Virus record (IMG/VR): IMGVR_UViG_3300043104_000334
Direction: 5' to 3' (one strand)
Source of the DNA: a virus
Lineage: Duplodnaviria; Caudoviricetes
Length of the DNA stretch: 64,000 bases
Shown: one piece after another, positions 12,701 to 63,657 of the stretch
Layout of the letters: every line of letters starts with the position of its first letter
Position numbering within the stretch: position 1 is the first letter of the stretch
The notes under the pieces: generated by a model
What the model was told of the DNA's origin: nothing
The model's input: only the letters and a program-made list of their open reading frames with translations
Database searches by the model: none
Made by a program: the position numbers and the translations under genes

Positions 12701-14076
12701 AGTTCTCCACCAGACATACCTTCATATACAAATGTAAGCTTACCATCAACTGTCTTCTTTTCAAATCCCTTTGGAGCAGTAGAAGTATAAGCCTCCACTT
12801 GAGTGGATGAACTGTCACATAGTAATTTCTTACTTAATGTTGTGGGCTCAACAGTTATTGTCACATTATAGCTGTCATTATAGTACTGGCCCTTTTTCTT
12901 AAAGTCTGCAATACTTGTATCTTTACCAACATCTAAATGTACTGTAAATATAGATTCCTGCGCAGTTTTATCAGTAAAGTCAGCCGCAGTGAGATGGTCT
13001 GTTGATGTTACATAGTATGTTAAATTTGGTTGGTTTATCTCCGCTTCCTCATCACAATTGAATACTCCGAAGTAACCACGTGCATAATAGTTCATACTAT
13101 TATACTTTACATACTGTGTACCGCACCATTGTTTCTGCGAACTGCCACCACTAGCTACTACACCCCAGCCCCGTTCATGACCATGATTATGCTGACCATC
13201 TAACCATGCTCTACAATATACATGTGCGTAAGTATTAACTGTACATTTGTTCTTCACTACATCTTTCATGAAGTCTGAAACACTTGAATAGCCTGTAGTC
13301 CAAGCGCTTCCATTACCAATATTCTTTAATATTTGTGATGGTTGATACACATTGATACCACCATCTGAGTACTTTTCTACAAATCCTACAGTCCATGTTA
13401 TGACTGGTAACTTATAATCTGGATACTTATTAGGGCTCTTGTACCAAGCTTTGAAGTTTGTAGCTACATCATCACCAGCAAGTGCTTTTAACACTGCCAC
13501 ATATGTGGTAATCTTATGTTTCTTAGTAGTACTATCATACGGAAATAAGTAGTCACTTATATCATTCTTACTTCCCCATAATATTTTCTGAATCAGTGTC
13601 TTAACTGTAGTATCAGTCACAGACGCTGTCGTCCAGTTATTACTACTATTAACCGTAAATTGTAACAGGTCAGCATTTGGAAGATAATCACTACTACCCA
13701 CAAGATACCCATATACATCTACTCCACTCGATATATTACCAGAATATACGGTATCACTATCTGATAACTTTTTACCAGTAGCCGCTCTCTGATTTACAAT
13801 AGTCTCTGCATCTGCCTCTAATCCATTCATGTTATCACGGCTGCTACAATACGTTGAAAGGTCAAGAGATGATATATAATCTACTTTTATTATAACTGCC
13901 GGACCGGCTTTTGCAATAGTTCCTGAACCACTCCAAGTGCTTGCATTTGCTGATTTACCATCATGAGAGCTTATTGACCCTCCATCACCGGCGCCATATG
14001 CAATAACACTTCCAGCACCAACTAATGCACATATGAGGAACATCAATGCTAATGATTTTTTAAGAATCTTTTTCAT
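6709..14076 (-). CDS. Giant secreted Ser/Thr-rich protein, probable Tad-pilus-associated adhesin
   Basis: N-terminal signal peptide, three ~190-aa internal repeats, Cys-rich segment, C-terminal ...TTGTH, no LPXTG; last gene of the pilin-like run. Confidence 0.7.
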   Translation of the reverse strand: MKKILKKSLALMFLICALVGAGSVIAYGAGDGGSISSHDGKSANASTWSGSGTIAKAGPAVIIKVDYISSLDLSTYCSSRDNMNGLEADAETIVNQRAATGKKLSDSDTVYSGNISSGVDVYGYLVGSSDYLPNADLLQFTVNSSNNWTTASVTDTTVKTLIQKILWGSKNDISDYLFPYDSTTKKHKITTYVAVLKALAGDDVATNFKAWYKSPNKYPDYKLPVITWTVGFVEKYSDGGINVYQPSQILKNIGNGSAWTTGYSSVSDFMKDVVKNKCTVNTYAHVYCRAWLDGQHNHGHERGWGVVASGGSSQKQWCGTQYVKYNSMNYYARGYFGVFNCDEEAEINQPNLTYYVTSTDHLTAADFTDKTAQESIFTVHLDVGKDTSIADFKKKGQYYNDSYNVTITVEPTTLSKKLLCDSSSTQVEAYTSTAPKGFEKKTVDGKLTFVYEGMSGGELAGYLGDKGDGIKLSFGVKDADCTVLSHSLKFTVSVTSTDSVTAVDAPTDKNGDSVDPYWSATSKTNHNCWKATSAGDFSYSIKSTNHLTKTKLYTGTAQSTKFTMYFDAADSTKDNITGSGSYDISISINTNKYNKGTCDSENTTYAKSMITAYKFKSTNGISGIEFSASGSYGETATLQFTANEVAIKQLINQENPISFIQKVKGNKNATVLASSVKFSVSIKKHTDSEDKRVSVSAAKITGNKILYYDKYFDVGNEISHNCFSTGDRPTSYTFSVLSSVHEEETVLTEGEYQNATFALYLGADNDTLEAVNTSASYTVVVQATPKYSICDKSPTPRVSGLIKGMYIRGASTSSTYDEVTKHSEAIGTYVSFSASSSKGATSTYKFTVTGTELKKLLKQQYYIDISELAQSTSKTEKAGHMSAPASFTVTINSTSVIPTDIEDCSDAYWCLENDTNNVGHSYNDWVGPDVVDHIDWTFSTTSDIEAYAEIVANCAGTKSNTYDGLASDWNVSEGIPSTENLAVAAGGRVCSIDLSGRIHAYGQQLKTSDALYKNNKSDTQNAQNKNAAITRTIKFKVTITDIWASSKDSNARCTLSCPGHTLGSKSQNVTEKSGTADANGLTNTWSCDTCGATGTQSTRGGVMASATGQTHTCTKDGVTYSTSVAGFTASAKWSAGNGEQKSSSACAGCGTVLTITASGGVDPTWGASGHTCNYTVTFNCSTGDVTASGDGSVASKSVTAPTSTSNKQRYLLTACSVKIGTKTYSGYTYTADTLTCDGYTAGYGCTVTHATQNIIHPATKTFTFSLVETVDVYAYRELLSAKVYTLERAEIASVNTSLISSSAVGQASSNTNISVDMWKANGDYNGSNGRVWFTKFKSPQYKSGDGWTSTTVSGDNGAEHYWLGNCTISMTVVADNSVGTLANSGAIDSVSISKSYGKQTAHWNADSSHGNTNYQSKIGDVLTDDQALTEALHVVNAWECANSVENGYTANIISDAMSISVANVGSQNILAESYAIDSGINLFNFGFTENGQTYYRNHANKYGTAEELQNTLNTNVFWDKYDDVGNLNDAKTLYVGYTGHVSSNPSVKYSSDGIIRGESFIDSLSKATLSGYVTNGEKWSQNSNIIVATCYSRTVPITSTVPGRTNFVSKSEGTAQTQTFNGYYTTFAYPNIGSFTVNRYLNGSLISSGSNVSNNGAGNVSGYTNTSDGSTINYCTALVISNISMIQTAKNGVYTSPIGVNVYYNLALDFSNQSLCQQCVDSEQVSAPKITADRKTEYVAKLSPDSDNGVLNDVLIHDPVSSQYSQLIGNGYGDYDGNGPAEDETGEDMRVSTQGVAEANKNNYVVIGNTVHLWITDFGDFYDAYGDSIAGVATASLGVGCTYNGADSNTGKINSNAKGYTNNMNTGRWVAERDVMFTFPVIGTKVNGDTVTIPANTWINLSEYRCNTLENNTGSVSKASDGSLTNAASGVFHGATDALQNALSSDSEFKYGLDYSFQVVTSAEETTTATVTFATIAINAGSNIDFDQYQNRNITRDYNLVADNTTYCSTTIEVVGRIGNLALEDVGDFRYSELFKKALTSWSIPNVVHNVDSSYPVKILTTTADIMLSSRGHTAQTQSHATLSVTNYRYGSITGLGKAGEWGTLPLTAASLQSNSTYSTEQLKIGYASYFDIETIGNYYGINTLEGGSFGGDDGPSSVADENSGEDTRTAVMTITPHYYLYDYSEGKFYAIDLYAGSSGSYTLYYSDTSAANVKKLTETGLSIDLTTEAARRNTTSTEESYTDTVLSYWGINKAAYKKYDYIGTASKIVLDCNDLDYIGSSYLYGDASEGTGTNQLGGTAMSGSTGNGVTALNFMKQSQRWYFTLNLPSSTIATYAGAATSKTEVLTANQKLKNDHPNSVIVAFAGITVQGSVYELEYDARLMNGGKDNKITLYSNDNKPDNCNNNTITVGENGVDVYSSTGTVVTKIDSKWAPLVVYDAYNTSTTDLTTTGTH

Positions 14077-48892: not shown

Positions 48893-49264
48893 TTATTTCC
48901 TCCTGTCAACGAGATACATCTCACTCATAAAATTATCCTCCTCAATCAGAAGAAAATCATATAAAGCACCGTCCTCAAGGTCTTTAAAGCAAACAGTACT
49001 CTTGCTTAAACTAAACCCTATGAACTGCAACGTTTTGAATGAATCTTGCAATTCCAGTTTGTAATCACAGATTACACGCAACATCCAAACCGGAATTTCT
49101 AATTCCATTGTCTCAGCATTTATGATAAGATCACGTAGCCCGAACATATCTCCCATAGGCTCAGGTGACTTCTTTCTTTTTCTTTTGTCTTTCATCACAA
49201 GTGCTGTTACACCACTTACCATTGTTACCATTGCTGTTACAAAAACTAGTTTTTTGTTCTTCAT
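48893..49264 (-). CDS. Hypothetical protein
   Basis: Start refined to MKNKKLV. Confidence 0.55.
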   Translation of the reverse strand: MKNKKLVFVTAMVTMVSGVTALVMKDKRKRKKSPEPMGDMFGLRDLIINAETMELEIPVWMLRVICDYKLELQDSFKTLQFIGFSLSKSTVCFKDLEDGALYDFLLIEEDNFMSEMYLVDRRK

Positions 49265-49283
49265 AAAAATTTCCATCCTTACT

Positions 49284-51023
49284 TTATTTGTGTTTCCATT
49301 GAGCATATAGCTTTATTGTTTTGTTGTTCTTTGTAGTTAAATTCTTTATCTTTGTTTCATCACTGTAGCTTATACCTGTACCATCCGCTTTAGTGTTCCA
49401 ACCAATAAATATGTAGTTCTTTCTAGTAAAGCTGCATGTAGGTAATCTATATGATTTTCCATACTTGCATACTTTGCTACTCATCGTTCCAGAACCACTA
49501 TTTGAATAAAATTTTATTTTATACGTATTTGGCATCCATTTCGCGTATAGTATATAATTCTTCTTTTTATTCTTTTGTATCTTAGTGACAGCCTTTGTCA
49601 AATCTTTGTCACTATACCATCCATCAAATGTGTAACCTAAACGTTCAGGCACCAACAATTTTGAGCCGGTAGATGGTAGATAATATTTAGTCTTACTCCC
49701 ATTATTGCTACCATCATTCATGTTATATTTTATTTTATAAGCACGTTCTGCAGATGTGATGCTACTATTTAGCTTGCCTTGTGTTGCTGCAACTGCCCTA
49801 ACCTTTGTATAATCGGTCACCGTAATCTTTCCACTATAAATGTAGGATTTACTACTCGCTACACTTGGAGTTGTTCCGTCGGTTGTATAATATATGATTG
49901 AATTGTTAGTCTTACAAGACATGGAAATACTATAACTAGTAATAATCTTTTTACCAGTCTTAGTGTCACTACTGTACACGGGAATAGCCTTTATTGTAAC
50001 ATTCTTTGTAACATCTGTTACTGCTGACAATGTACCAACATCATATTCATAACTATCTGTATCCATAGTACACTCAGGTAAGTACCCATCCCAATAAGAC
50101 AACGCTGTGTGATTCTCAACAGTATCTTTATACTTGCTATAGGCATAATCACTTCTTGCAAAATAAGTATAGTATGGTTCATCTTCTGATTCTTGATCAT
50201 CAAAAGTACAATCAACATTATACCATGAGCCATTCATTAAAACCTTATTCCACTCATGATTATACCCTGTTACAGATATACAGTCTACACCAATTGCATT
50301 ACACAACATTTCAAATACATGAGCATAACCAGCACACACAGTGCTATTAAAGCAAAGTGCACTATACGCACTTTGTGTTAAGTATATGTCATCCTTTTCA
50401 TTGTCTACCATTTTGTTTTCATCAAGCACATCATGATTGTATGTTATGTTTTCGCAAACTAAATCGTGTATTGACTTAACAGTATTTAAAACATCTGTAG
50501 TATCAATTTCGATCTCATTAATCCATGACTCGATAGCGTCTTTAAATAAAGCTGTAGCTTCAGCACGTTCAACACCATTTGCAAAACTACTATAGGACAC
50601 TAAGTAAATTCCATTGTGATTATCAAGATGCCCTGTCAGCACTGATGTCTGCAAATAGTAATATTGTGGATTAGAATATCTGAACATCCTTTCAACAAAT
50701 ACCTGTTGCTCTAATGTAAGTTCATCAGAATATATAAAATCAGAAATATAACGAGAGTTATATTCTGTAAAGTCCTTATTCGTATTCATGTATGTTAAAC
50801 ATAAGTTATTCAGCCTATCCCAGAAATCACGCTCAGGTTCATCAAGTTGATTGTAGAAATAGTATGTGGAAAATTTGTCCCAATAGGATGTATATGTTTC
50901 AGCCCGTTTAAATGTATTAACATACTGTATGTTTGTGCTACTACTCGCATATGCTATATTTGAACTACTAGTCAATGATAGCATTAGTACAAGTATTAAG
51001 CACTTCTTCAAATTTAAAAACAC
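49284..51023 (-). CDS. Secreted transglutaminase-like (Cys-His-Asp) protein with Fn3-associated domain and InlB-B/Listeria-Bacteroides repeats
   Basis: VCAGYA, HEWNKV, WYNVDCTFDD; IYYTTDGTTP; GYTFDGWY and FIGWNTKADGTG; probable GTG start after GGGAG. Confidence 0.8.
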   Translation of the reverse strand: MFLNLKKCLILVLMLSLTSSSNIAYASSSTNIQYVNTFKRAETYTSYWDKFSTYYFYNQLDEPERDFWDRLNNLCLTYMNTNKDFTEYNSRYISDFIYSDELTLEQQVFVERMFRYSNPQYYYLQTSVLTGHLDNHNGIYLVSYSSFANGVERAEATALFKDAIESWINEIEIDTTDVLNTVKSIHDLVCENITYNHDVLDENKMVDNEKDDIYLTQSAYSALCFNSTVCAGYAHVFEMLCNAIGVDCISVTGYNHEWNKVLMNGSWYNVDCTFDDQESEDEPYYTYFARSDYAYSKYKDTVENHTALSYWDGYLPECTMDTDSYEYDVGTLSAVTDVTKNVTIKAIPVYSSDTKTGKKIITSYSISMSCKTNNSIIYYTTDGTTPSVASSKSYIYSGKITVTDYTKVRAVAATQGKLNSSITSAERAYKIKYNMNDGSNNGSKTKYYLPSTGSKLLVPERLGYTFDGWYSDKDLTKAVTKIQKNKKKNYILYAKWMPNTYKIKFYSNSGSGTMSSKVCKYGKSYRLPTCSFTRKNYIFIGWNTKADGTGISYSDETKIKNLTTKNNKTIKLYAQWKHK

Positions 51024-51207
51024 AGCATACTCCCTTTCGCTATTTGCAGTGCTCATATAATATAAACAATCTCTAATGAGCACTGTAATAGTCAGTTGAA
51101 CAGTCAATGCCTATTCCGCATAATGTATACGAATATTACTGTGAATACACCAGAGAATATCGTTATAGCAATATCCAGAATAGTATTGATTGTATGTAAA
51201 CATTCTA

Positions 51208-51651
51208 TCATTTTAACATCTCCACAAATGTTATAAGATATTGAATCCTATCGTGAATAGTAAATCTATTACGATAGAAAAAGTGACATATAAGAATAGC
51301 AATTAAAATAGACATCATAATATTCTCAGATTTTGTAATCTTTAATTGCTTTCCTAAAATCCATGATATCCATGTTCGTATCACTATGATTCCAATAATT
51401 GGTGACATTATAAATAAAGCAGCATTACTGCTATATGCTGTCTCCCAGTCAAAGTGAGCCATAGCAATTAACATATGACTCACTCCACACCCTGGGCATA
51501 ACAATCCAGTTATCACATTAAACAAACATGGTATCCCAATATTAAATTTTGATACCGTAATCGCCTGTAATGACATTACAATGCATAAGCATGCAGTAAG
51601 TAACAGCCGCTGCTTCGGTGACTTAAGCCGTAGCGTTTGCATTGAGCTCAT
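51208..51651 (-). CDS. DUF2752-family membrane protein
   Basis: GIPCLF..ITGLLCPGCG. Confidence 0.85.
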   Translation of the reverse strand: MSSMQTLRLKSPKQRLLLTACLCIVMSLQAITVSKFNIGIPCLFNVITGLLCPGCGVSHMLIAMAHFDWETAYSSNAALFIMSPIIGIIVIRTWISWILGKQLKITKSENIMMSILIAILICHFFYRNRFTIHDRIQYLITFVEMLK

Positions 51652-51958
51652 TCTGCATAATGCAGTAGTTCACAATACCAAGACCGAAAATGGCAAGAAT
51701 CAAGAATAAGATGGTATTGTTTCCACCCTTGATGCTGTCCATCTTTACACCCATTTTGTAATTCCAGTACCACCCATAGATACCGCAGGTGATAATAGTA
51801 AACAGGAATGCTTTCCCTCCGGTTGTCTGATAGTCATCATCCGGTGTAAGAGTATTCATGTCATTCGTGATACATACGAACCAATAGATTCCATAGATAC
51901 CACACGTGATGATACTCAATATGATCTGCACTACAATGTTACGATTTTTAATTTCCAT
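51623..51958 (-). CDS. DUF4234-family membrane protein
   Basis: Duplicated IITCGIYG.YW. Confidence 0.85.
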   Translation of the reverse strand: MEIKNRNIVVQIILSIITCGIYGIYWFVCITNDMNTLTPDDDYQTTGGKAFLFTIITCGIYGWYWNYKMGVKMDSIKGGNNTILFLILAIFGLGIVNYCIMQNELNANATA

Positions 51959-52034: not shown

Positions 52035-52397
52035 TTATAATTCGATTGTAAATAACTCGTTAGTTGATAAGATACCGAATGTGTATGTATTCTCATCATA
52101 ATCGTCAAGATACAGTGTGTCATCTGATATATTGTTTTCGATACAATATTCATAGCACCTTTCTGTAAGAATATCGAGAACACTCTCAGATAAACTTTCA
52201 GTGTCAATGATGCTTACGCTAATGTTACTAAGCGACAGCACATTATCTTCATGCGAGAAACCATCCTCTTGTATCACTGAATCCTCTGTATCGCTTACAT
52301 AAGATTCATATTCAGCAGAAGATTTCTTGCTGTACAGATATACACACAGTATCATCATAACAACCACAAGTAAACATAACAAGACTTTCTTCTTCAT
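52035..52397 (-). CDS. Small membrane-anchored partner of the M15 peptidase
   Basis: TM followed by YESYVSDTED. Confidence 0.7.
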   Translation of the reverse strand: MKKKVLLCLLVVVMMILCVYLYSKKSSAEYESYVSDTEDSVIQEDGFSHEDNVLSLSNISVSIIDTESLSESVLDILTERCYEYCIENNISDDTLYLDDYDENTYTFGILSTNELFTIEL

Positions 52398-52405
52398 AAT
52401 TCACC

Positions 52406-53425
52406 TCAATGATTAAACACTGAGAAGTGCATTGGGTCACATGAACTCTTTCCCCAGTTACCTCTCCAGTATAATCCGTATTTTTCAAATATTTGCATTA
52501 TTGTACACCCCTTATATATGCAAGTGTATTTGTACTGGTTATCAGTCAGCTTGGACCAATTCTCATAAGACCTTGGATATGGTCTATCAGACGAGCCATT
52601 GTTTGTATTCCAATTCCAAGATACCTCATTTCCTTTTTGGTCACTATAGTTTATATCTATAGTACCACCATACGAATGAGTTGAAGTTGAATGACTGCTG
52701 CTAGAATTATTCATCTCTCTTACACAATATCCACCAGCAACAGTAATCACAGGTTGATCAGCGCTTTCATATATCTCTTTAAAAATCTGCTTTATGATAG
52801 GTTGCAATGTAGTACAACACTGAACATTTATTGTAGCCGATACCTTAGTAAGATCTGTACTCGTCGGATTAGGGTTTGCCCATTGCCAAACATCAACCTG
52901 AATAGAACTCATAGCCTGACTATTCAAACTCCTAATGGTACTACCAGTTATACTATCACCTTGCCACTGTTTCAAGTCTGAATACGTATATGATGAGTTT
53001 GGATATAACAATGCAAATACTGCATTACAAGACTTTGTACTTCCACTACTACTACCAGCAGCTTGAGCTGTTTGCACAGCAGCTAATAACTCATTCAAGT
53101 CTGTTGGAACATCTGCAGATATTGTTGCTGAACCTGTTGAACCAATTGAACTAGCCAAATTATATGAACCTGATGCCATTTCGTCAGCATCATCCTCTGA
53201 CATACCAATAGACAAGGCTAAACTTGTGTCCCCAGTTAGACCTGTATAGGACTGTACAAATATAAGATTCTTAGATAAACCTGAAGTACTATCAGGTTTA
53301 ATAGAGTCATACGTTTCGAGAATGCTATCATTTGATGATGTACCAATAAGCAGATATATAGCAACCACAAACCCTATAAGAGTTACCAAGAATCTGAACA
53401 GTTTAAATAATGATTTAGTATTCAT
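52406..53425 (-). CDS. Membrane-anchored M15-family peptidoglycan peptidase
   Basis: GGYCVR, STHSYGGTIDIN, WRGNW..DPMHF. Confidence 0.85.
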   Translation of the reverse strand: MNTKSLFKLFRFLVTLIGFVVAIYLLIGTSSNDSILETYDSIKPDSTSGLSKNLIFVQSYTGLTGDTSLALSIGMSEDDADEMASGSYNLASSIGSTGSATISADVPTDLNELLAAVQTAQAAGSSSGSTKSCNAVFALLYPNSSYTYSDLKQWQGDSITGSTIRSLNSQAMSSIQVDVWQWANPNPTSTDLTKVSATINVQCCTTLQPIIKQIFKEIYESADQPVITVAGGYCVREMNNSSSSHSTSTHSYGGTIDINYSDQKGNEVSWNWNTNNGSSDRPYPRSYENWSKLTDNQYKYTCIYKGCTIMQIFEKYGLYWRGNWGKSSCDPMHFSVFNH

Positions 53426-53459
53426 AGTGTCTCCTTATAGAATTTGTAAATGCGAAATG

Positions 53460-53843
53460 CTAATTTCTAAATATTGTATAGTACAAGTTTTCCTCTGCGT
53501 CATACAAGATATCCTGCTCCTTATCACCAATCAAGCACTCAATTGTTTTTGTATCTTCATCAAAAGAAACAAAGGTACAGTTACTCCAATCAATTGCTTC
53601 ATCCGGAAATGTGTTTATGAATACTTCAAGATATTCCGGATCGATTGCACTGACTGCATCTTCATTGTTGACGAATACTTTATTTGATGTCATCTCAGAA
53701 ATAGCGACACCGTCCTCCGAATCATAGGATTCAGTGTCATTTTTAATATATTGTTCATAACTTGCATCCTTACTCATTAGTATGACAACAACAGCGCAAA
53801 CTAATACAATAGTAGTAATGAGCAACGGAATTATTTTCTTCAT
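53460..53843 (-). CDS. Small membrane-anchored partner of the C39-like peptidase
   Basis: TM followed by YEQYIKNDTES. Confidence 0.7.
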   Translation of the reverse strand: MKKIIPLLITTIVLVCAVVVILMSKDASYEQYIKNDTESYDSEDGVAISEMTSNKVFVNNEDAVSAIDPEYLEVFINTFPDEAIDWSNCTFVSFDEDTKTIECLIGDKEQDILYDAEENLYYTIFRN

Positions 53844-53845
53844 GC

Positions 53846-54775
53846 TTACCCAACCTTTCTTATTACCCAGTATCCCTTGAAATGATAATTGTATCCTTTG
53901 TGGGATGTTGCGAGGTTTCCGCTGGAGTCATATAATGGATAGTCATAAGTACTCACTGTATCATACGATACGCTGAGATGATTCTTTGCCTTAGTAGAAC
54001 TATCTGCTACATGAAATGATTTTCCATCATCACTCAAATCAGTTATACAAATTATATGACCACCATCAGTAAATAATCCACTACTTGAACTGACAAGGAT
54101 AGCAGTATTAGCATCACCCGCATATTTTTCAATTGCTCGCATTACAACTGAACAACCCACTGTGCTCGATGAATACTCAACCATTTCATATGTGCCATAT
54201 GTTCCTTTACTATTTAGTTCCGTAACAAATGTTGTTGGACCATCCCAACCCATACCATTTGAGTTACCCCACCCAGCTCTTACAGTACTAGGGAATTGAC
54301 TTTTGAAATCTGGTGGAGAAATAATTGTTCCGGACAACTCAGCTATAACGAATGTCATACTACAAAGTCCACAGCCATTATTACTAATATTACCACTTGG
54401 CCCAAGTGATGTACTAGCATAATTTGATTGTTGTACCTGATAATGATTATGATTAGAACTATCATGGGGTGAATTACCTGCAGTGTCATTTGCATTCTTA
54501 CTCACTGAACCATAGGTGCCCGCAGCCATTTCTTGTGCATCAGATTCTGATACACCAACCGATAAAGCAAGACTTGTATCTCCTGTAAGACCAGTATACG
54601 ACTTTAGGAAAACAAGTGTCTTAGATAATCCTGAAGTACTATCTGGTTTAAGAGAATTATACGTTGCAATTATACTACTATCCGATGATGCACCAATCAT
54701 AAGATACACAGCAATAACAAATCCCAGTATTATCATAAGGAATTTAAATATCTTTGCTAATATCCTACCACGCAT
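53846..54775 (-). CDS. Membrane-anchored C39-like cysteine peptidase
   Basis: Q...NNGCGLCSM, FTDGGHII, VADS. Confidence 0.8.
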   Translation of the reverse strand: MRGRILAKIFKFLMIILGFVIAVYLMIGASSDSSIIATYNSLKPDSTSGLSKTLVFLKSYTGLTGDTSLALSVGVSESDAQEMAAGTYGSVSKNANDTAGNSPHDSSNHNHYQVQQSNYASTSLGPSGNISNNGCGLCSMTFVIAELSGTIISPPDFKSQFPSTVRAGWGNSNGMGWDGPTTFVTELNSKGTYGTYEMVEYSSSTVGCSVVMRAIEKYAGDANTAILVSSSSGLFTDGGHIICITDLSDDGKSFHVADSSTKAKNHLSVSYDTVSTYDYPLYDSSGNLATSHKGYNYHFKGYWVIRKVG

Positions 54776-54783
54776 AATTCCTC

Positions 54784-55842
54784 CTATAATCCAGATGTGT
54801 AATAGTACTTATAGAATATATATCTAAGCACATGTGATATTGTATAGTTGCCTTTGTTGGTTCTGCCAACGCCACCATGATAAGATGAGAAATCGATTCC
54901 TGTAATATTCTCAAGTTGTGTTACATAAGTCTTAACGTTGATATCGTCTAAGGTTATCTCTCTGTTATAAGCTTTCTCCCTAGCATCAACAAACATCTGG
55001 TATCCTACCTGATATATTGCATCTTGTACGTCTTGTCTGTTAATAACGTTAATAAGCTTTTTACCGAAGTCATACGTAATAAGTGCACATCCTTGCTGAG
55101 CTAAAGCCCAACAAGCATACACCGTAATATCACTAATAGGGTCAATTCCACAATTTATCCATGTAGTACTATATTGCCTAAGCGATGTTGTATAACTCCA
55201 AATAGGATTAACTCTATTATCTAAATGACTTTCATCCCAGTCATATGTAGTTATCTGGAATGGACCAACACCAAGTCCTGTCATAGCAGACGTTACCCTG
55301 CTTCCACTTCTAGGGGATTGCAATAACGCCACCGGAATACGATAACATTTGCCATCCTCGTTTGTATTGTAATTGGACTCAGTGTTTGCCATATACCAAG
55401 CACTGTCTACCTGTTCAAGATTTTTGGTAAGAGTAATCCAATCAATTTCCTTGTTATAAGTAGCTGGATTAAAATCCATTACATTTGTTAGACTGATGCC
55501 TTTATAGTCGGAATCAATTTCACCCCACATAGTAGCAAGGGCCATGCATGGGTTAATAGTTTCCAAAGCCATCTTATACATAGCAGTATTCTTGTCGCCG
55601 TATATTTCCTTAAGAGTCTGCGAATTAACACTCGCTAATGAGTAGTAAATGTTTTCATCAACTGTTGTAAGGTATTCACCAAACACATCATCAATAGCTA
55701 CAACAGACTGTGTTGTAAGCGTAACCTTATTGACAGTACTCTTAGTACTCGTATCAGCCACAGCTTCGTTAGGCTTGATACAAGCACACACAAGCAACGC
55801 TAACACTTGTATTACAACAAATAATTTGACTACTTCTTTCAT
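54784..55842 (-). CDS. Exported protein, possible lysozyme-like fold
   Basis: Signal peptide; ATMWGE and GLGVGPFQIT. Confidence 0.45.
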   Translation of the reverse strand: MKEVVKLFVVIQVLALLVCACIKPNEAVADTSTKSTVNKVTLTTQSVVAIDDVFGEYLTTVDENIYYSLASVNSQTLKEIYGDKNTAMYKMALETINPCMALATMWGEIDSDYKGISLTNVMDFNPATYNKEIDWITLTKNLEQVDSAWYMANTESNYNTNEDGKCYRIPVALLQSPRSGSRVTSAMTGLGVGPFQITTYDWDESHLDNRVNPIWSYTTSLRQYSTTWINCGIDPISDITVYACWALAQQGCALITYDFGKKLINVINRQDVQDAIYQVGYQMFVDAREKAYNREITLDDINVKTYVTQLENITGIDFSSYHGGVGRTNKGNYTISHVLRYIFYKYYYTSGL

Positions 55843-56954
55843 TATAAATCATGCTCCGTAAAATACTTATAGATAGCATTTGCATATTTAAGACGCTTAC
55901 TACCACTACACGAACTCTGTACGAGGTAATACTTATTACCGGACTTACTCCACTGATCTTTGCAGTTCTTGTAATTCTCATATGTAATTGCTACACGACC
56001 AGTAGCATCCTCTATTGTTGTTGCGTCATAAATATTGTCAAATACATTATAGACTTTTAATTCCTCAATAATCATACAGCACTCAGCTGTAATCATAGTG
56101 GCTTCAAAGTCACTTGGGAACTGTTCATTTGCAAGCTCGTAGTACTCGAGCAAGGATTGCTGTCTTCTTGAATAAGTCCATTGTACACAGCCATACCCAT
56201 ACTTTCCACCACGACAGGTATCCCTAACCTGCTCCATATTTGTACTGCATTCATAGGAACCTTGCTTCATTGCGAAACACCCCTCTACGTAAATGTTCCC
56301 TAAGATACCAGCAGCATTCTCAGCAGGAACACCTTGTTGATTTACCAAGAAATCCCATAAGACTGCAATGGTGTTAATCTTATCTTTACAATCCCAATCA
56401 GGGGTTTCGTATTCAGTATTGTAAATCTCAACAAGTCTCTCAGTGTTAATGTTTACAGGTTCACTGTCATAAAGTGTACATCCACGGTCCTCAAGTTTTA
56501 TACTTCCGATAATAACTGAACTATCATAATAAGGAGAACTGAGAACATCATTCTCTTCATCAATAATTGTAGCCAGCTCATTCAGGTTAACCGTGCCAGA
56601 CTTAGCATCTTCATTATCAAGAGCTTTTACTTCGGTATCCCTAAGTTTGTAGAATGTACTAGATACACCGGCAACAGGAATATCAGATACACTGTTAAGT
56701 AGTTTAGCCTCACTGTAAATATTGATAAGGCGCAACGATACCCCTGCCGTTGTTTCTGCAGATTGACTTACCTCAATAAGCTCAATTACATCAGTGCCAG
56801 AGTCATCACACAAATTGTATAAATCACTTAATGAGGCAAGACTGCTACAGAATACATAAAGGTTCAACACAAATATCAACACGATAATCGTGTTACCAAC
56901 CTTTGCCAACGCGCTTCCATGTTTCATTACTACATCACTCAGTTTCTTAATCAT
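55842..56954 (-). CDS. Phage-tail-lysozyme-family muramidase
   Basis: AAGILGNIYVEG, GYGCVQWT..RRQ.L, YE, R..YA. Confidence 0.85.
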   Translation of the reverse strand: MIKKLSDVVMKHGSALAKVGNTIIVLIFVLNLYVFCSSLASLSDLYNLCDDSGTDVIELIEVSQSAETTAGVSLRLINIYSEAKLLNSVSDIPVAGVSSTFYKLRDTEVKALDNEDAKSGTVNLNELATIIDEENDVLSSPYYDSSVIIGSIKLEDRGCTLYDSEPVNINTERLVEIYNTEYETPDWDCKDKINTIAVLWDFLVNQQGVPAENAAGILGNIYVEGCFAMKQGSYECSTNMEQVRDTCRGGKYGYGCVQWTYSRRQQSLLEYYELANEQFPSDFEATMITAECCMIIEELKVYNVFDNIYDATTIEDATGRVAITYENYKNCKDQWSKSGNKYYLVQSSCSGSKRLKYANAIYKYFTEHDL

Positions 56955-56986
56955 CTTTTCGATTCTCCCATCTTTTCGATTTGATT

Positions 56987-57412
56987 TTATTCTTCAGCAT
57001 AGCTTCGATAAATAGTGCTAAGCATTTTCATTGCAGTCTCATTTAAGAACGTTCCTGCATCATAGTCAAACACATAATCGAAGTTGTACGTGAATTTGTT
57101 TCCATTATACATGGCAGATACAATAGGTTGCCCACCCTGCAACTTAGCCCGAACTTTCATAAGAGCAATACCAACGAAGTTCTTTGCAATCTTATGTTTG
57201 CACCGTTCACAATAGCAACATCCAAGCATCGAGTCATGTATGTGTGTCGAGTCATAGACAAGCATAGACTCACCGGTTTCGAGAAGTTCATTCCGATACT
57301 TTTCGTTACCAAGACACTTAAGGTAAACTACCCTAATAATGTCCTTGACATTTGTGTACTTGTCAAACTCACCATCATGAACCAATGTTTTACTTACTTT
57401 AACTATGTTCAT
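56987..57412 (-). CDS. Truncated NADAR-like protein
   Basis: K...NEKYRNELLETGESMLV...HDSMLG..KNFVGIALMKVR. Confidence 0.7.
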   Translation of the reverse strand: MNIVKVSKTLVHDGEFDKYTNVKDIIRVVYLKCLGNEKYRNELLETGESMLVYDSTHIHDSMLGCCYCERCKHKIAKNFVGIALMKVRAKLQGGQPIVSAMYNGNKFTYNFDYVFDYDAGTFLNETAMKMLSTIYRSYAEE

Positions 57413-57423
57413 CAGATCCTCCT

Positions 57424-57822
57424 TTAATAATCATATTTATCACCTGCATTGACTGTAAGCTTACCATCAGAATCAATTGTGATAGAGTACATTCTACTAT
57501 TATAATAGAACAATGCACTATACCCATTTTCCTCTGTGTAGTACACCCAATTACACTCAGCAGCTACATCATAAGGGATACCATAGACTTCAAGAACTTT
57601 CTCATTTTCTGTAAGCACACTCGCAATGAAATTATCATCCGCATCCGTTGTACTTGTGATGTCAATCTGATTAGCCTCAGTGTCTTCTGCTACATAATCA
57701 GCATACTGATTTCTCTGCTTCGATTGATAAACCCATAAAGCAAAACAGATAGTCGCAAATACAAGAAATACGATGATATCCCTTATTACTTTTGTATTCA
57801 ATCTAATTTCTTTACGTTCCAT
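57424..57822 (-). CDS. Small membrane-anchored partner of the lysozyme 57837-59105
   Basis: TM followed by YADYVAEDTEA. Confidence 0.7.
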   Translation of the reverse strand: MERKEIRLNTKVIRDIIVFLVFATICFALWVYQSKQRNQYADYVAEDTEANQIDITSTTDADDNFIASVLTENEKVLEVYGIPYDVAAECNWVYYTEENGYSALFYYNSRMYSITIDSDGKLTVNAGDKYDY

Positions 57823-57836
57823 ATTTCCTGTTCTCC

Positions 57837-59105
57837 TTACTTTAATATATTCTCGTACACAAATATTGCTATACCACACCGCTTCTCCCAGCCACCAATT
57901 TCTTCACGTTCGTCATAACTAACCTGACTTGCGCAATAATGTGTCCTGCCGCGTTTGTACTGAGATTTAAGTGCACACCGCTCATCCTTACTTGCAAAAT
58001 AATATGTAGCCTGTTCAACACTATTGGCATTTTCATTAAACGTTTTAGCATCACTTGCCTGATAACTAGCTTTCATATACGTCAATATATATTCACATTG
58101 AAAGTTTGCATCGTACCACTGTACTCCTTTATCAATTGCCGCTTGAACTATTTCCTTTGCAGTTCCTCCATCCCACTGTAATACACCTATCGCTTTGCCA
58201 TTCTTAAAATCACCAGTTATCTTATTATTAACTATTTTAGCAGCTCCTCCACTCGCCCAATTAACTACTTCCTCATTTGACATTGGGCCATTGCTGCTAG
58301 GTGTTTCTTCTGCACCTTGTCTACATCCCATATAGTACCCACACTCAGCATAGAAGTTACCAAGAACCCCGGCTATAGCATTTTTATTATATCCAGCAGC
58401 AGCTAACGTATTTGTGACAGCTACCATATTTTTTATTAAATCTGTCGCACCGTCTGGCGCTACAAGCAGTGACGTCATATAATCCTGACCGTTATCATCT
58501 ACTGTAGCACCATGTAACGTATTTGTTTGATACAACCCAGGATATTTACTATCCCAATTTGTATTAGTAAATGAAATTGTTATAGGGTCTCCTGTAAGTC
58601 CAGAGAAATCACCAACGCCAAGACTTGTACCACCTGATGAAACAGTTGATGAAGAACTGGTACCGGCTTCCGCAGTAGCCATATCAGCATCTTCCTGCTG
58701 AACATCACTGCTCATAGTAAGCGTAACAGTTGTTGTGCCATCAGCATTTACTGTCACGTAAAATAACTTTTTATCAAATCCATTCTTTGAATTGCTAACA
58801 CGAGCCGTAAGAGACGTATACTGGTCTACAAGTTTGTCCAATGAGACATTGGCGGACACAATAAGGTATATTGTTATGACTACAATCAATCCAACAACTA
58901 CTAAGCTGATAGTCGGATTAAATAATATAAATGTCAGTATACTAGGCTTATGCTTTGTTGGACCTTTTTCAGCTATCTTAGCATCCCTAGCAGCCTTTCT
59001 CGCTTGTGCTCTCTTTTCCCACTTTGAATAAACCTTTACAGACTCGGTTATTGTCTCCTCACCGTGGTCAGTCATGGTAGTGACTTGTCTCATTTCATAC
59101 TTCAT
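57837..59105 (-). CDS. Membrane-anchored phage-tail-lysozyme-family muramidase
   Basis: AIAGVLGNFYAECG, AIGVLQW, FASKDER. Confidence 0.8.
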   Translation of the reverse strand: MKYEMRQVTTMTDHGEETITESVKVYSKWEKRAQARKAARDAKIAEKGPTKHKPSILTFILFNPTISLVVVGLIVVITIYLIVSANVSLDKLVDQYTSLTARVSNSKNGFDKKLFYVTVNADGTTTVTLTMSSDVQQEDADMATAEAGTSSSSTVSSGGTSLGVGDFSGLTGDPITISFTNTNWDSKYPGLYQTNTLHGATVDDNGQDYMTSLLVAPDGATDLIKNMVAVTNTLAAAGYNKNAIAGVLGNFYAECGYYMGCRQGAEETPSSNGPMSNEEVVNWASGGAAKIVNNKITGDFKNGKAIGVLQWDGGTAKEIVQAAIDKGVQWYDANFQCEYILTYMKASYQASDAKTFNENANSVEQATYYFASKDERCALKSQYKRGRTHYCASQVSYDEREEIGGWEKRCGIAIFVYENILK

Positions 59106-59113
59106 ATTATCAC

Positions 59114-59464
59114 CTATTTATTCAGCAGACTACGGTACATTATCTCTAATGTAGTAAGCCTTCTGTTGTCATCGACTGATGGATTTACAAACGTACTTGG
59201 TGAGTATGTAACAGCATCTAAGAATCCATTCTTAGAGATAGACCTGACAAGCGCTGATGCTGTTTCTTCATTTGTAACAATACAAATGTCAAGCGCTTCA
59301 TCATAAGCTGCGATAAAATGTACAACAGCCGGAAATGTATAATCGGACACTTCTTCCAACTTACATGTGTCATCGTAGACCGTAAGCTTTTTGTTTATGT
59401 ACACACCAGAAATTTCATAAGCCGCTAATTTCTGCGTATCATCATTCCTTAATAGTATTCTCAT
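59114..59464 (-). CDS. Hypothetical protein
   Basis: 116 aa with RBS. Confidence 0.6.
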   Translation of the reverse strand: MRILLRNDDTQKLAAYEISGVYINKKLTVYDDTCKLEEVSDYTFPAVVHFIAAYDEALDICIVTNEETASALVRSISKNGFLDAVTYSPSTFVNPSVDDNRRLTTLEIMYRSLLNK

Positions 59465-59485
59465 ATAGTTGCCCTCATCCCTTAA

Positions 59486-59914
59486 TTATTCTGCATTAGT
59501 GAGTTCGTTTATTGTATCAGAGTCGCCAATATATTCATCATCGACATATAGCATTGCATAGAACTTATCATCAGTTATCCAGAAACTAGCATATGCATCG
59601 TTATCAAAGATTAGCATACCGTTTACTGTATTATCATCGTTGCTTTCTCTAACATTAGATATTTGCACAAATGAGTATCCATAAAGTGAGCTAACATTGT
59701 TTATGAAGTCACTAACATCCTGTCTGCCTTTTATGGAATCAGCCTCTAAACTATCGTAATAATTGAATGTGTCTGTTGTGCTGTCTTCACTTGATATGTA
59801 TGCATCATATGTATTTTTATACTCACAATATTTGTGGTAGCATATGACTATAGCAATTATATTAAGTACCATAAGGATACCCAATATAACTAGACTCTTG
59901 TACTTGTCTTTCAT
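59486..59914 (-). CDS. Small membrane-anchored partner of 59911-60777
   Basis: TM followed by YDAYISSED; ATGA-coupled. Confidence 0.7.
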   Translation of the reverse strand: MKDKYKSLVILGILMVLNIIAIVICYHKYCEYKNTYDAYISSEDSTTDTFNYYDSLEADSIKGRQDVSDFINNVSSLYGYSFVQISNVRESNDDNTVNGMLIFDNDAYASFWITDDKFYAMLYVDDEYIGDSDTINELTNAE

Positions 59915-60777
59915 ACGTAAGACCCCCTGACTATCTTTACAATCTTACCCTTCCATTCTGGATGGCATACAGATGTTCCAGGATTACCGTGCCATGAACC
60001 TGTACCACTTGGATACCATGTAGGAACACTTGTATTGTTTTTGTTTACGAGAAACTCTATTGTATTCATAGTGTCTGCACTCGCTTCATGTCCCCATACT
60101 GTCCAGTTGCTATCACCACTACTTTTTATTTCACCCACTACACATGGTATTATTACAGTGCCATTAGACGTCTCAACATAAACATCAATTGTCTGTCCGA
60201 CATCAGCTATGCCACCATTATCAATCCATGATACTGCAACAACATACCTACCATCAACGACACCAAACCCTTCATCATCAAAAGCTGTTACATCACCGAT
60301 CGTACTATCCCAATTAGGATATTTACTTTTTCGCCATATGTACTGTGGGGATGATTGACTTGTTATCATCTGCCAACCCATATACGTATAACAAAACTTG
60401 CTGTAAGGACAGCTACTAAAGTCTATTGTATCACCATCTACGATAAGTTTGGTGTCACCTGAACTAGATTCAGTAGTACCAGCTTCCGCAGTAGCTGTAT
60501 CAATATCTTCCTGTTGTATATCACTACTACTTGAGGTAAGTGTCAATGTTGTAGTTCCATCAGCATTTACCGTAACATAGAATAATTTCTTATTAAATCC
60601 ATTCTTTGAACTAGTAGGCTTACTCGTCAATGACGTGTACTTTTCGATTAGAGTGGAGTCTTTCACCTGTATGGAGCAAACTAAAGCAATATATGCAGCT
60701 CCTAATATTAAGACTAATAATACAAGCCTTATTAAAATAGGAGACACTTTATGCTTTCCATTATTTTGATTATTCAT
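59911..60777 (-). CDS. Membrane-anchored putative cell-wall hydrolase (3D/DPBB-like C-terminus)
   Basis: N-terminus shared with 57837-59105; GRYVVAV..VGQTIDV..IPCVVGEIK..IEF. Confidence 0.55.
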   Translation of the reverse strand: MNNQNNGKHKVSPILIRLVLLVLILGAAYIALVCSIQVKDSTLIEKYTSLTSKPTSSKNGFNKKLFYVTVNADGTTTLTLTSSSSDIQQEDIDTATAEAGTTESSSGDTKLIVDGDTIDFSSCPYSKFCYTYMGWQMITSQSSPQYIWRKSKYPNWDSTIGDVTAFDDEGFGVVDGRYVVAVSWIDNGGIADVGQTIDVYVETSNGTVIIPCVVGEIKSSGDSNWTVWGHEASADTMNTIEFLVNKNNTSVPTWYPSGTGSWHGNPGTSVCHPEWKGKIVKIVRGSYV

Positions 60778-60848: not shown

Positions 60849-60869
60849 ATAGGGAGAAATTCTCCCTAT
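60849..60869 (-). terminator. Hairpin overlapping the VirB4-like stop codon
   Basis: ATAGGGAGA / TCTCCCTAT. Confidence 0.5.
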
Positions 60870-62950
60870 GAACCGGACATAACATTTTTCTCTTTTACCG
60901 GTGTATTTACTTTATACTTCTTAAACTTGCCATCATCGTTCTTTTCAACCTCGACCTGAATAATAGGATAAAGATTCTTGTTCTGCATATTGTTAATAAA
61001 CACAAAACAGTTCTTGTACCTGTTTGAACTTCCGGGTATCTTTATGTGGTCCTCGAGATGCTTAAGCCCAAACTGCTCAATAACAACTTTACGTGCATCA
61101 AGCGTAAGCTCACCAACAAACAGTCCTCTTGTATTTTCAATAAGAGGCTTGGCAATTTCACTATTCTGCAATGCCTGTACTGAATTACCCAAGAGCAAGG
61201 TATCCTGATTCTGTGACCGTCTAAGCGTATACTCCTGAACGTACATCTTCATGATTTCATCAGAAACAACCTGTGACTCTTCAAGTATTTTAAATGTACG
61301 CTTACCCTCAGCATACTTTCTTGTTGTGAACTCACCATTAAGCTTTGACATATACAGAAACTTAAGTCGGAATAAATCCTCATCAATGTCTGAAATTGTT
61401 GCATCTCCAAGGATACCAAAGTCAAATGCTAATGTGTCACTGTGCAGGATTTTGGCGTAATCAAACTCACGCTTAAACACATAAGACTTTGAACCTGTTG
61501 CAGACATAAACATCCTGAGTGTTCCGATAACAGTCTTATGAATGTTATACTGAGCACGCTTCTGTGGAGTAAGGTATTTCTCAAACCTATCAAACACTTC
61601 ATAAGGATTCAACGATTCCGTTGTGTTCCATGAGTTCATGTTTGTAGGTATCGCACCAATCGAGATGTACAATGTATCCAAGAATTCATCAAGCAATTCT
61701 TCAAGTTCAAGAAGCGTTTCTCTATCCCGAACACCAGATAAGATAATCATCTGTTCCTTTGAGAACTTTACTCTTGATTTGAAATAGGCTTCTGCATTAT
61801 CCTGCGATGTATCTTCCTTGTGCATAACGAAACTGTTGATATACTCAGTTGACATAGGACGCAATGATACTGTATAGCCATTTGTAGCGTTGATGAAATT
61901 GGTATACTCATTACCTTTAATATCCATCATAACACAAGCAGAACCATTTTCATAAGCTGACTGTGCCATATTCATTGCGAGGACAGTCTTACCAACACCT
62001 GATGGCGCTACACAATACATATTACGTGCAACAGTTATCTCACTAAAGTCAATATAGTAAGGCGTACCATTAAGCACATTCTGTCCGACATAATATCCTG
62101 TCTTATCGTTGTATGAGCCGCAGTTGGGAACAATCTGTGACAAAATGACATTTGTTGTCATAACAGGTGTTGTACCCTTGAGGTCATAGTTCTTTCCACC
62201 AAACATTGAAATGTACTCAAGGTCACTACGAATAGAACCATGTGCTGGCATATAGATACATCCCATGGAACCAAGCATATCGAAGATAATCTTCTCTGCG
62301 TTGTTAAGGGTTTGAATATCTTTAGCCCGAACAATAAGGTACATTCGAGTGTTCTTCAGTTGTTTGCCAGACTCAGCAACTTTTACTGTATATAGACACC
62401 TCGCTGACCTTTCACGCATTCTCTTTGATGTAAGGTCAGAATCAAGGTTATTTTCCCACATGTTAATACGACTTTTTAAACCGGAATTATTAGGGTCATA
62501 ATCATAATTACTATTCTTGAATGTTGCATCAAGTATAGCTCGATTGCCCCTATCACGAAGAGCAGAGTTAAGCACTCCTAAAAGTGTAATAGGAGTGCTT
62601 GTTCCCAACTCATAGATTTGTATGATTGTTGACATGTACAGCTTTGTAACATACATGTTATTCGTAATAAGAATCCTGTCTCCGATGTTATCTGGAATCT
62701 TACCTCTGTCTTTCATCGTAAGACTAACGAGATAAGAAATCCACATCTTCACCCATAAGAATCTATCGGGCTTTACTTTGCCCTCATTACGAATCTCAGC
62801 AGCTTTCCTAACTGATTTCCGTATGTTCTTCTGAGTCTTTTCTGCGTCTACTTCGCCATACTCGTCATAGGCAACCTCAACTTTAGAAGCCTCTTCAATG
62901 TTATTACTCCTCTGCTTTGAGTCAGCCTTTAACTCATCCCTAAGCGCCAT
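60866..62950 (-). CDS. VirB4/TraE-like conjugation (T4SS) ATPase
   Basis: G..YVGQ..NGTPYYID, RNM.VAPSGVGKT, MDIKGNEY, ILEESQ, LRRS..LLLGNS. Confidence 0.8.
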   Translation of the reverse strand: MALRDELKADSKQRSNNIEEASKVEVAYDEYGEVDAEKTQKNIRKSVRKAAEIRNEGKVKPDRFLWVKMWISYLVSLTMKDRGKIPDNIGDRILITNNMYVTKLYMSTIIQIYELGTSTPITLLGVLNSALRDRGNRAILDATFKNSNYDYDPNNSGLKSRINMWENNLDSDLTSKRMRERSARCLYTVKVAESGKQLKNTRMYLIVRAKDIQTLNNAEKIIFDMLGSMGCIYMPAHGSIRSDLEYISMFGGKNYDLKGTTPVMTTNVILSQIVPNCGSYNDKTGYYVGQNVLNGTPYYIDFSEITVARNMYCVAPSGVGKTVLAMNMAQSAYENGSACVMMDIKGNEYTNFINATNGYTVSLRPMSTEYINSFVMHKEDTSQDNAEAYFKSRVKFSKEQMIILSGVRDRETLLELEELLDEFLDTLYISIGAIPTNMNSWNTTESLNPYEVFDRFEKYLTPQKRAQYNIHKTVIGTLRMFMSATGSKSYVFKREFDYAKILHSDTLAFDFGILGDATISDIDEDLFRLKFLYMSKLNGEFTTRKYAEGKRTFKILEESQVVSDEIMKMYVQEYTLRRSQNQDTLLLGNSVQALQNSEIAKPLIENTRGLFVGELTLDARKVVIEQFGLKHLEDHIKIPGSSNRYKNCFVFINNMQNKNLYPIIQVEVEKNDDGKFKKYKVNTPVKEKNVMSGS

Positions 62951-63042
62951 AAATATAGCCTCCTTCAAAAACAATTCTTAGCTGAATAATCCAATAGCAC
63001 TGTGCTCATCTCATCAGCAAATTCGTATTCATGTTCTAAGCT

Positions 63043-63657
63043 TCATAAAGCTTCATCAAATTCTTTAATGTCTAAGTTGCCAGCCAGAATATGATTTCCG
63101 CCGACCCAAGAACTTCCATGAACTTTCACGTTTTCAGATAAACGTGCAAACTCATGTATTTGGGCGTCTTCAGAAACTTCTGCATTGTCAGAAACCTTAG
63201 CATAATCGTACACCCATGCATAGCCGGATACCTTTGCATTACCGGATACTTTTGCATGTCCAAACACAGCAGCGCCATCTGACACGACTGCTGAACCATA
63301 GACATGTGCATCACCGTCAACCAGTGTCTTGTCTGTCACATGTGCAGAATCACTGATGTATGCACTTCCCCATACTCTTGCATCACCATCAACACATCCA
63401 CCGGAAATCATAGCTTTACCACGTACTTCCGCATTACCAGCAACTATAGCATTGTCAAATACTGTTGCAGACTCGTAGACCCAGCAGTTTCCACTCTGGC
63501 TGAGATTACTTGGCGACTCAATGTATCCGCCTATATCCCCATCCATAACGTCTTTGAAATTCTTTACCGCCTGAATCTGATAGAGCGTACGATTGCCAAT
63601 TGTCAAGGTTCTGTCCTTTAATAAAACGTACTTGATATCTCCACTAATTTTACTCAT
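63043..63657 (-). CDS. Left-handed beta-helix (hexapeptide repeat) protein
   Basis: LYQIQAV..GDIGGYIES..NLSQSGNCWVY followed by (A.V.G.A.V) repeats. Confidence 0.85.
   Translation of the reverse strand: MSKISGDIKYVLLKDRTLTIGNRTLYQIQAVKNFKDVMDGDIGGYIESPSNLSQSGNCWVYESATVFDNAIVAGNAEVRGKAMISGGCVDGDARVWGSAYISDSAHVTDKTLVDGDAHVYGSAVVSDGAAVFGHAKVSGNAKVSGYAWVYDYAKVSDNAEVSEDAQIHEFARLSENVKVHGSSWVGGNHILAGNLDIKEFDEAL

Follow-up and report, generated by a model that had tools for sequence, protein, structure and literature searches.

Organization of the Hydrolase Array

We describe a block of genes for putative cell wall hydrolases in a 64,000-nucleotide stretch of DNA deposited as a viral genome (Duplodnaviria; Caudoviricetes; IMG/VR record IMGVR_UViG_3300043104_000334), the whole of which is referred to here as the window. 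In four of these genes, a conserved N-terminal module is joined through a linker to a different catalytic domain, and no more than 15 nt downstream of each lies a gene for a small acidic protein (120–142 aa) with a single transmembrane (TM) helix. These small proteins, hereafter partners, belong to one family, and in related elements catalytic domain and partner have been replaced together. All genes between positions 52035 and 62974 lie on the minus strand and are tightly packed, with gaps of −4 to 88 nt. The ATPase gene, the four cassettes (a, b, J and L) and two further hydrolase-type genes are given below from first to last.

60866..62974, minus strand: divergent ATPase of the VirB4 family, 702 aa, with which the block begins
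59911..60777, minus strand: hydrolase of cassette a, 288 aa, with N-terminal module, Ser/Gly linker and a C-terminal domain of double-psi beta-barrel (DPBB) type
59486..59914, minus strand: partner a, 142 aa, bitopic and acidic, with a TM helix and a YDAYIS motif (partner profile E 6e-21)
57837..59105, minus strand: hydrolase of cassette b, 422 aa, with a cytoplasmic tail of ~55 aa, module, linker and Phage_lysozyme2 domain
57424..57822, minus strand: partner b, 132 aa if translated from an ATG at 57822 (partner profile E 7e-20)
55842..56954, minus strand: conserved TM-anchored Phage_lysozyme2 hydrolase, 370 aa (PF18013, E 3e-19), with neither module nor partner
54784..55842, minus strand: conserved exported protein, 352 aa, with a signal or lipoprotein-like N-terminus and neither module nor partner
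53846..54775, minus strand: hydrolase of cassette J, 309 aa, with module, linker and a papain-like (C39_2-like) C-terminal domain
53460..53843, minus strand: partner J, 127 aa (partner profile E 6e-23), 2 nt after the stop of hydrolase J
52406..53425, minus strand: hydrolase of cassette L, 339 aa, with module, linker and an M15_4 zinc peptidase domain
52035..52397, minus strand: partner L, 120 aa, with a TM helix at residues 2–25, a disordered acidic stretch and a small ectodomain (partner profile E 6e-21)

The start of partner a overlaps the stop of hydrolase a by 4 nt, and the open reading frame (ORF) of partner b reaches further upstream, to a GTG at 57879. A hydrophobic N-terminal helix is present in all six hydrolase-type genes of the array. 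Two of these six, at 55842–56954 and 54784–55842, had been overlooked in a preliminary description of the locus. The first (cluster c4) was found in all eight loci compared (8/8) and is not matched by the module profile; the second (cluster c5) is likewise present in all loci. The 352-aa protein had no sequence or profile match in Pfam, NCBIfam or the PDB, and a GPFQIT-type motif suggests that it is possibly a divergent transglycosylase. A scan for promoters and terminators gave counts not higher than those of shuffled controls.

A Shared N-Terminal Module

All four cassette hydrolases carry one common module of ~90 aa, composed of a TM helix, a juxtamembrane segment of ~55 aa and an acidic EDDAE-like end motif. 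Past the helix, the module is marked by the motifs Y-x-S-[IL] and S-x-x-G-[FL]-x-K-x-L-x-[FY], a hairpin-like stretch and [ED][ED]DA[ED]. It is located as follows.

60463–60750, minus strand: module of hydrolase a, residues ~10–105 (profile E 1.7e-40)
58647–58943, minus strand: module of hydrolase b, residues 55–153 (profile E 1e-43)
54494–54775, minus strand: module of hydrolase J, residues 1–94 (profile E 1e-37)
53144–53425, minus strand: module of hydrolase L, residues 1–94 (profile E 2.6e-38)

The preliminary description had recognized two separate pairs of genes with near-identical N-termini and different C-termini. The C-terminal ends are indeed unrelated within each pair, but "near-identical" overstates the resemblance. 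Hydrolases L (52406–53425) and J (53846–54775) are identical at 57 of 88 positions (65%; E 3e-38), with no significant match past residue 88 and a DNA identity of ~81% over the module. Hydrolases b (57837–59105) and a (59911–60777) are identical at 50 of 85 positions (59%; E 3e-21), all in the segment after the TM helix. These E values rule out chance as the source of the similarity. Nor do the pairs stand apart, since all four N-termini align as one module and a single profile matches them all. The other features reported there hold: a linker rich in Ser, Gly and Thr follows the module and precedes the swapped domain, and each hydrolase gene directly precedes a gene for a TM protein of 120–142 aa with a Y-x-x-Y-[VI]-acidic motif and a divergent body.

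In eight loci, the module profile matched 25 of 25 cassette hydrolases, with E values between 3e-7 and 1e-43, and none of the remaining array proteins. An exhaustive HMMER search of 1.84 billion representative proteins returned 163 representatives with the module, 89 of them at E ≤ 1e-10. Nearly all 163 are 254–441 aa long and bear the module at the N-terminus, and their C-terminal parts fall into at least 16 BLAST clusters.

By inspection, the residues SAN, ASS and TSS after the helix hint at signal-peptidase sites. The slot-1 hydrolases (window 58944–59105, minus strand, and loci L001–L008, introduced below) have in addition a conserved cytoplasmic tail of ~55 aa ahead of the TM helix (MKYE..TTASGGQETITE..basic stretch), which neither cassette a nor the hydrolases of slots J and L possess. 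Judged from its sequence, this tail could serve as a docking site for a cytoplasmic component.

Cassette Exchange between Related Elements

With the module profile, related loci were found on metagenomic contigs of 160–200 kb (L001, L002, L004, L005, L007, L008, L009 and L011–L014), and about ten such elements, of ~186–200 kb, were compared. All of them are syntenic. The ATPase comes first in every one, followed by a variable stretch, slot 1, a small bitopic protein, the Phage_lysozyme2 gene, the 352-aa gene, slot J and slot L. Each slot consists of a module hydrolase and its partner, and the array thereby comprises three polymorphic slots and two conserved hydrolase-type genes that have no partner. 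The window differs from its relatives in having two slot-1 cassettes in tandem.

The polymorphism is most evident at slot 1 of four near-identical elements, where the hydrolases have near-identical N-termini and four unrelated C-termini (419, 342, 415 and 408 aa) and the small protein encoded next is a different one in each case (159, 123, 120 and 149 aa). Aligned as DNA, L001 and L004 show 97.3% identity as far as nt 10477 (codon ~159, at the end of the module). Homology is then lost until positions 11743 and 11629, respectively, just past the partner stop, from where identity is 98.2%. The same pattern was found between L001 and L005, in slot J of L001 and L002 (break at 14564, resumption at 15601) and in both slots of L007 and L008. 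In all five comparisons, the boundary lies at codon ~84–159, at the module end, and homology returns past the stop of the partner, which shows that the exchanged unit comprises the catalytic domain plus the partner gene. The earlier suggestion of C-terminal swapping with co-varying partners is thus borne out across related elements, and the set of domains is not fixed among homologous elements.

Pairing was without exception in the window and 16 loci, in which all 43 module-bearing ORFs directly precede an ORF of the partner family (one partner being cut by a contig end and another overlapping the hydrolase stop), and the partner profile matches only ORFs paired with module hydrolases. The partners form 17 clusters and the C-terminal domains 10, each partner cluster occurring with a single C-domain cluster. 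One type of C-domain and partner is shared across lineages, by L007 and L002, and their sister elements have other types. Partners diverge faster than enzymes, in that within a single M15 or "HTWPG" superfamily of enzymes the partners are no longer recognizably related. With at least eight types in slot 1, five in slot J and four in slot L, we estimate about ten independent swaps.

A more distant element (L017, 207–7439) has TM-anchored hydrolases without the module, namely one of DPBB type (277 aa) and one with an M15_4 domain (337 aa). Downstream of the DPBB enzyme come three acidic proteins, all bitopic (156, 218 and 188 aa), an arrangement which suggests that the pairing with small membrane proteins may predate the module.

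Catalytic Domains

The domain labels of the preliminary description were M15, tail lysozyme, C39-like and 3D-like. Hydrolase L matches PF13539 (M15_4) above the cut-off (E 2e-10, 41.5 bits), with H250, D257 and H333 invariant among four homologues, and hydrolase b matches PF18013 (Phage_lysozyme2), also above the cut-off, with E 1.5e-19 and 71 bits. For hydrolase J, the match to PF13529 (C39_2) has an E value of 5e-4 and, with 21.0 bits, lies under the gathering cut-off of 24, although two relatives in the same C-domain cluster reach E 6e-6. This domain probably has a papain-like fold that is not assignable to C39_2.

Hydrolase a had no Pfam match at E ≤ 0.1, including to PF06725 (3D domain). 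Its C-terminal domain is 40–55% identical to the N-terminal domain of multidomain lysins that also carry NlpC/P60, Amidase_5, ELLD or LysM domains. An AlphaFold2 (AF2) model, built on an alignment with these lysin relatives, reached a predicted local distance difference test (pLDDT) value of 88.7, and two structure searches with it retrieved almost only DPBB proteins, that is, expansins, an RlpA-like protein, GH45 enzymes, MltA, LtgG and YuiC, at low scores (Z ≤ 4.7, Foldseek E ≥ 0.012). There was also an Atlas feature match to a 3D cluster (score 0.87). Because the structural scores are low, "3D-like" is here a lead at the level of fold and not a family membership.

Among 73 sampled module proteins, Pfam recognized Phage_lysozyme2 (PF18013) in 18, M15_4 in eight, C39_2 in two and Hydrolase_2, SLT and CHAP in one each. 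All recognized domains are therefore those of wall hydrolases, and the remaining proteins have no family.

Partner Proteins

The four partners of the window share the residues M-K-K-K, one N-terminal TM helix and the Y-x-x-Y-[VI] motif with acidic residues, and are divergent in the remainder. The helix is followed by an acidic ectodomain of 65–120 aa (isoelectric point, pI, ~4.1 in all). This layout suggests that ectodomain and exported enzyme would face the same side of the membrane. Charge complementarity between enzyme and partner was considered and gives no argument, since acidity is common to all partners, whereas the pI of the catalytic domains ranges from 4.7 to 8.2.

The AF2 model of partner L shows a beta-beta-alpha-beta-beta-beta ectodomain with pLDDT 85–90 over residues 70–120. 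Searches of the PDB gave no convincing match to this fold, the best being E 0.15 with Foldseek (ToxR/VtrA periplasmic domains) and Z 4.9 in a wide VIA search. By sequence search, relatives of the partners were found only on the same family of ~180–200 kb elements.

Three other small proteins with one N-terminal TM helix are encoded beside the arrays (L001 11763–12245, L001 17116–17466, and window 48893–49306, minus strand). Both of those in L001 have an acidic C-terminal part. None of the three is matched by the partner profile, and they may be partners that have diverged very far or have no relation to them.

The ATPase and the Nature of the Element

The neighboring ATPase had been described as VirB4. 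Its four best NCBIfam matches are indeed all to VirB4 families (E 2e-11 to 2.4e-4, among them NF045975 with 2e-11, NF045971 with 7e-9 and TIGR00929 with 4.5e-5), but all are far below the cut-offs (19–42 bits against 325–643). Pfam P-loop_TraG is matched with E 2.9e-7. Judged by these profiles, the protein is a distant relative of VirB4. It had no tblastn match in plasmid or phage collections, no sequence match in the PDB and no match in a single-protein search of IMG/VR.

The element that carries the array is an unclassified mobile element of ~190–200 kb, probably from a Gram-positive-type host. It is known only from metagenomes and has no close relative among the deposited phages or plasmids searched. 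Its other genes include those for an RNA polymerase beta subunit and a DnaB-like helicase. In the window, the polymerase is represented by an unsplit gene of 1345 aa (2080–6117, minus strand; Rpb2_6, E 8e-34), no more than ~25% identical to any sequence of the phage collection, and beside it stands an ORF of 2455 aa (6709–14076, minus strand) with no Pfam match. The Hodor megaplasmids (PMC12934698) were considered as the identity of the element and rejected, as they exceed 300 kb and carry Rep_3 and VirD4, and RNA polymerase is not mentioned in that paper.

Possible Function of the Cassettes

Nothing else readily explains why enzyme and partner are constantly replaced together, and it is therefore likely that the ectodomain of each partner specifically binds its own catalytic domain. 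A complex predicted for the M15 domain (residues 100–339) and the ectodomain of partner L (residues 28–120) received a score of 0.01 and a mark of 0.32, which speaks neither for nor against binding.

As to the consequence of such binding, we favor, at somewhat better than even probability, a system of exported wall hydrolases with cognate extracytoplasmic partners that would act as inhibitors of immunity type. Under this reading, the conserved module of ~90 aa would provide a Sec-type TM helix or signal anchor, to which interchangeable lysozyme-like, DPBB, papain/CHAP-like or M15 domains are attached through the linker. The partner would be an inhibitor exposed at the outside of the membrane of the producer, with an ectodomain specific to that catalytic domain, and it would neutralize this one enzyme, so that the producer and cells with the same cassette would be protected. 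Where a contacted cell has no such partner, the enzyme would stay active on its wall and either open it for transfer or damage a competitor. Recombination at the linker, replacing catalytic domain and partner as a unit, would then generate new specificities.

Three features make inhibition, whether for self-immunity or exclusion, the best reading of the data: the fast turnover between elements that are 97–98% identical, the faster divergence of partners than of enzymes, and the two conserved hydrolase-type genes without partners, which may do the ordinary opening of the wall. As these two genes occur in the array of every element and may fill the usual VirB1-like role, the former proposal that the polymorphic enzymes stand instead of the usual single VirB1 needs correction.

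Several points weigh against the inhibitor reading. Neither Foldseek searches of the PDB nor VIA searches recognized an inhibitor or immunity fold in the partner ectodomain. Orphan immunity genes often accompany true immunity systems, and the partner profile found no orphan partner genes in the window and 16 loci. If the TM segment is not cleaved, the enzyme would stay on the producer and have no access to another cell. Besides the weak relative of VirB4, Pfam and NCBIfam recognized no core component of a type IV secretion system (T4SS), relaxase or coupling protein near the block, so that the conjugation context is one that we infer from this ATPase and the gene order. Finally, many of the loci are close relatives, which brings the number of independent swaps to the order of ten and not forty.

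Alternatively, the partners could be factors of entry or surface exclusion that, in a cell already harboring the element, stop the corresponding hydrolase of an arriving donor or virion, swapping being a means to escape resident relatives. The act would still be specific inhibition, and the function under selection would be control of compatibility and not self-protection or killing. The joint swapping of partner and enzyme domain between near-identical elements is in keeping with this idea, and several slots per element would yield combinatorial types. There is also a precedent in the YddJ–ConG pair of ICEBs1, in which a small surface protein is encoded just downstream of the T4SS hydrolase (10.1101/2021.01.25.428195). 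The target of YddJ, however, is the VirB6-like ConG and not a hydrolase, and any transfer of the element described here is putative. Sequence alone cannot separate exclusion from self-immunity, and we consider it rather unlikely that exclusion is the selected function.

Membrane partners control other wall hydrolases, and those described here might instead be activators, adaptors or chaperones that dock the hydrolase at a secretion machine or switch it on, the variety of domains fitting diverse host walls. Strict one-to-one pairing and co-variation are also compatible with such a role, the conserved juxtamembrane motifs beside the TM helices of both proteins could pair, and the enzyme classes would jointly cover glycan, stem-peptide and cross-link bonds. 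Nevertheless, swaps between elements that are 97–98% identical in their flanks point to a rapid, conflict-type turnover and not to slow adaptation to hosts; in addition, the partners evolve faster than the enzymes, and two conserved hydrolase-type genes of the same array need no partner. An activating role appears improbable, to about the same degree as exclusion.

A lysis module of a jumbo phage, with several endolysins each accompanied by a holin-like small membrane protein, is very improbable: the Phage_lysozyme2 and DPBB domains do have relatives among phage lysins and the element does encode its own RNA polymerase and replication genes, but one TM helix with a folded acidic ectodomain of 65–120 aa is not a holin layout, a holin has no reason to co-vary with a catalytic domain, in every element the gene of a VirB4-like ATPase precedes the block, and four of the six hydrolase-type genes had no match to a lysis family in PHROGs.

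Comparison with Known Systems

In its genes, the array resembles polymorphic toxin–immunity loci such as CdiA-CT/CdiI, Rhs and the LXG type of the type VII secretion system b (T7SSb; for the architecture of LXG effectors, see the outline in PMC9600955). Shared features are a constant N-terminal part, a C-terminal effector domain that varies, directly downstream a small gene cognate to it, and the exchange of domain and small gene as a unit at a conserved junction. Here, however, the constant part is only a signal-anchor module of ~90 aa and not a large delivery domain, every recognized payload is a wall hydrolase, and the locus is part of a T4SS-like operon on a giant mobile element. For the array, toxicity, immunity and delivery are predictions, the features that bear on delivery being a TM or signal segment and the neighboring VirB4-like gene.

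The closest type IV likeness is that with the X-Tfe/X-Tfi proteins of Xanthomonadales, wall-degrading effectors of a bacteria-killing T4SS, each with a cognate immunity protein (PMC6759196). In common are wall-degrading enzymes, a type IV link, here a putative one, and cognate partners. In X-Tfes, a conserved XVIPCD at the C-terminus binds VirD4, and the immunity genes are located upstream, whereas in the window the conserved module is N-terminal and contains a TM helix, the partner gene comes after that of the enzyme and VirD4 was not seen. The C-termini here are variable, and no search was aimed at the XVIPCD.

The wall hydrolases of Gram-positive conjugation systems, CwlT (ICEBs1), PrgK (pCF10), TraG (pIP501) and TcpG (pCW3), are exported or membrane-anchored and encoded just downstream of a VirB4-type ATPase. 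The array shares with them an N-terminal TM helix or signal joined to a hydrolase domain (PF18013 twice and PF13539 once in the window, all above the cut-offs) and may share the place beside a VirB4-type gene, its ATPase being a distant relative of VirB4. In those systems, the enzyme is single, often multidomain, conserved and not known to have a cognate partner; here, there are five to six single-domain genes, of which three or four are polymorphic and each of these is partnered.

YddJ of ICEBs1 mediates allele-specific exclusion through ConG and limits envelope damage from excess mating (10.1101/2021.01.25.428195). As predicted for the cassettes, a small surface protein, encoded downstream of a hydrolase, recognizes a component of the transfer machine in an allele-specific manner. 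The target of YddJ is a homologue of VirB6 and not a hydrolase, and there is one pair per element.

In the literature, we found no account of hydrolase cassettes that are both paired and swappable in a T4SS-like locus of Gram-positive type. For Gram-positive-type type IV-like machines, only single conserved hydrolases are known to us. It is conceivable, and we put this forward tentatively, that the cassettes represent a new class of polymorphic effector–immunity (or lock-and-key exclusion) pairs in giant mobile elements of Gram-positive-type hosts, in which a new module and a new family of bitopic inhibitors would set combinatorial compatibility or kin types between competing elements. It would be the first such T4SS-like-linked system outside Xanthomonadales, and the logic of polymorphic toxins would then reach, in Gram-positive-type cells, to the step at which a type IV-like machine employs its hydrolase. 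Should the partners be specific inhibitors, the elements would supply wall hydrolases together with the protein inhibitors that match them, in at least 16 enzyme clusters of which many lack a Pfam family. They would also provide a new targeting module and a handle on competition or exclusion among giant unclassified elements of gut-type bacteria. Given the sharp cassette boundaries, cognate and non-cognate pairs are directly testable.

Other Genes in and around the Block

Two further genes of the block lie on either side of cassette b.

59114..59464, minus strand: soluble protein of 116 aa, of a family (cluster c6) kept upstream of slot 1 in relatives
56987..57412, minus strand: NADAR-like fragment, an insert specific to the window between cassette b and the conserved lysozyme

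The 116-aa protein had no match in Pfam or NCBIfam. The NADAR-like fragment matches PF08719 with E 4e-8 and 34.1 bits against a cut-off of 35.1, over profile positions 90–163 only (~74 positions). At the same place, the relatives have a bitopic acidic protein of 153–160 aa instead.

The part between the ATPase and slot 1 is variable too. In relatives, it often holds a gene with a Fic domain (L001 8597–9226; same position in L002, L004, L005, L007 and L008), and a gene of AbiEii type stands just upstream of the ATPase (L001 4734–5582; same position in the same five loci). Between the ATPase and slot 1, the window has neither. Just upstream of its ATPase lies a gene for a beta-solenoid protein of 204 aa with YdcK-type repeats (63043–63657, minus strand). 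Directly downstream of the array (49284–51958, minus strand) are a pair of membrane proteins with DUF4234 and DUF2752 and a surface protein of 607 aa with a transglutaminase core, CHB_HEX_C/Fn3_assoc domains and Listeria-Bacteroides repeats.

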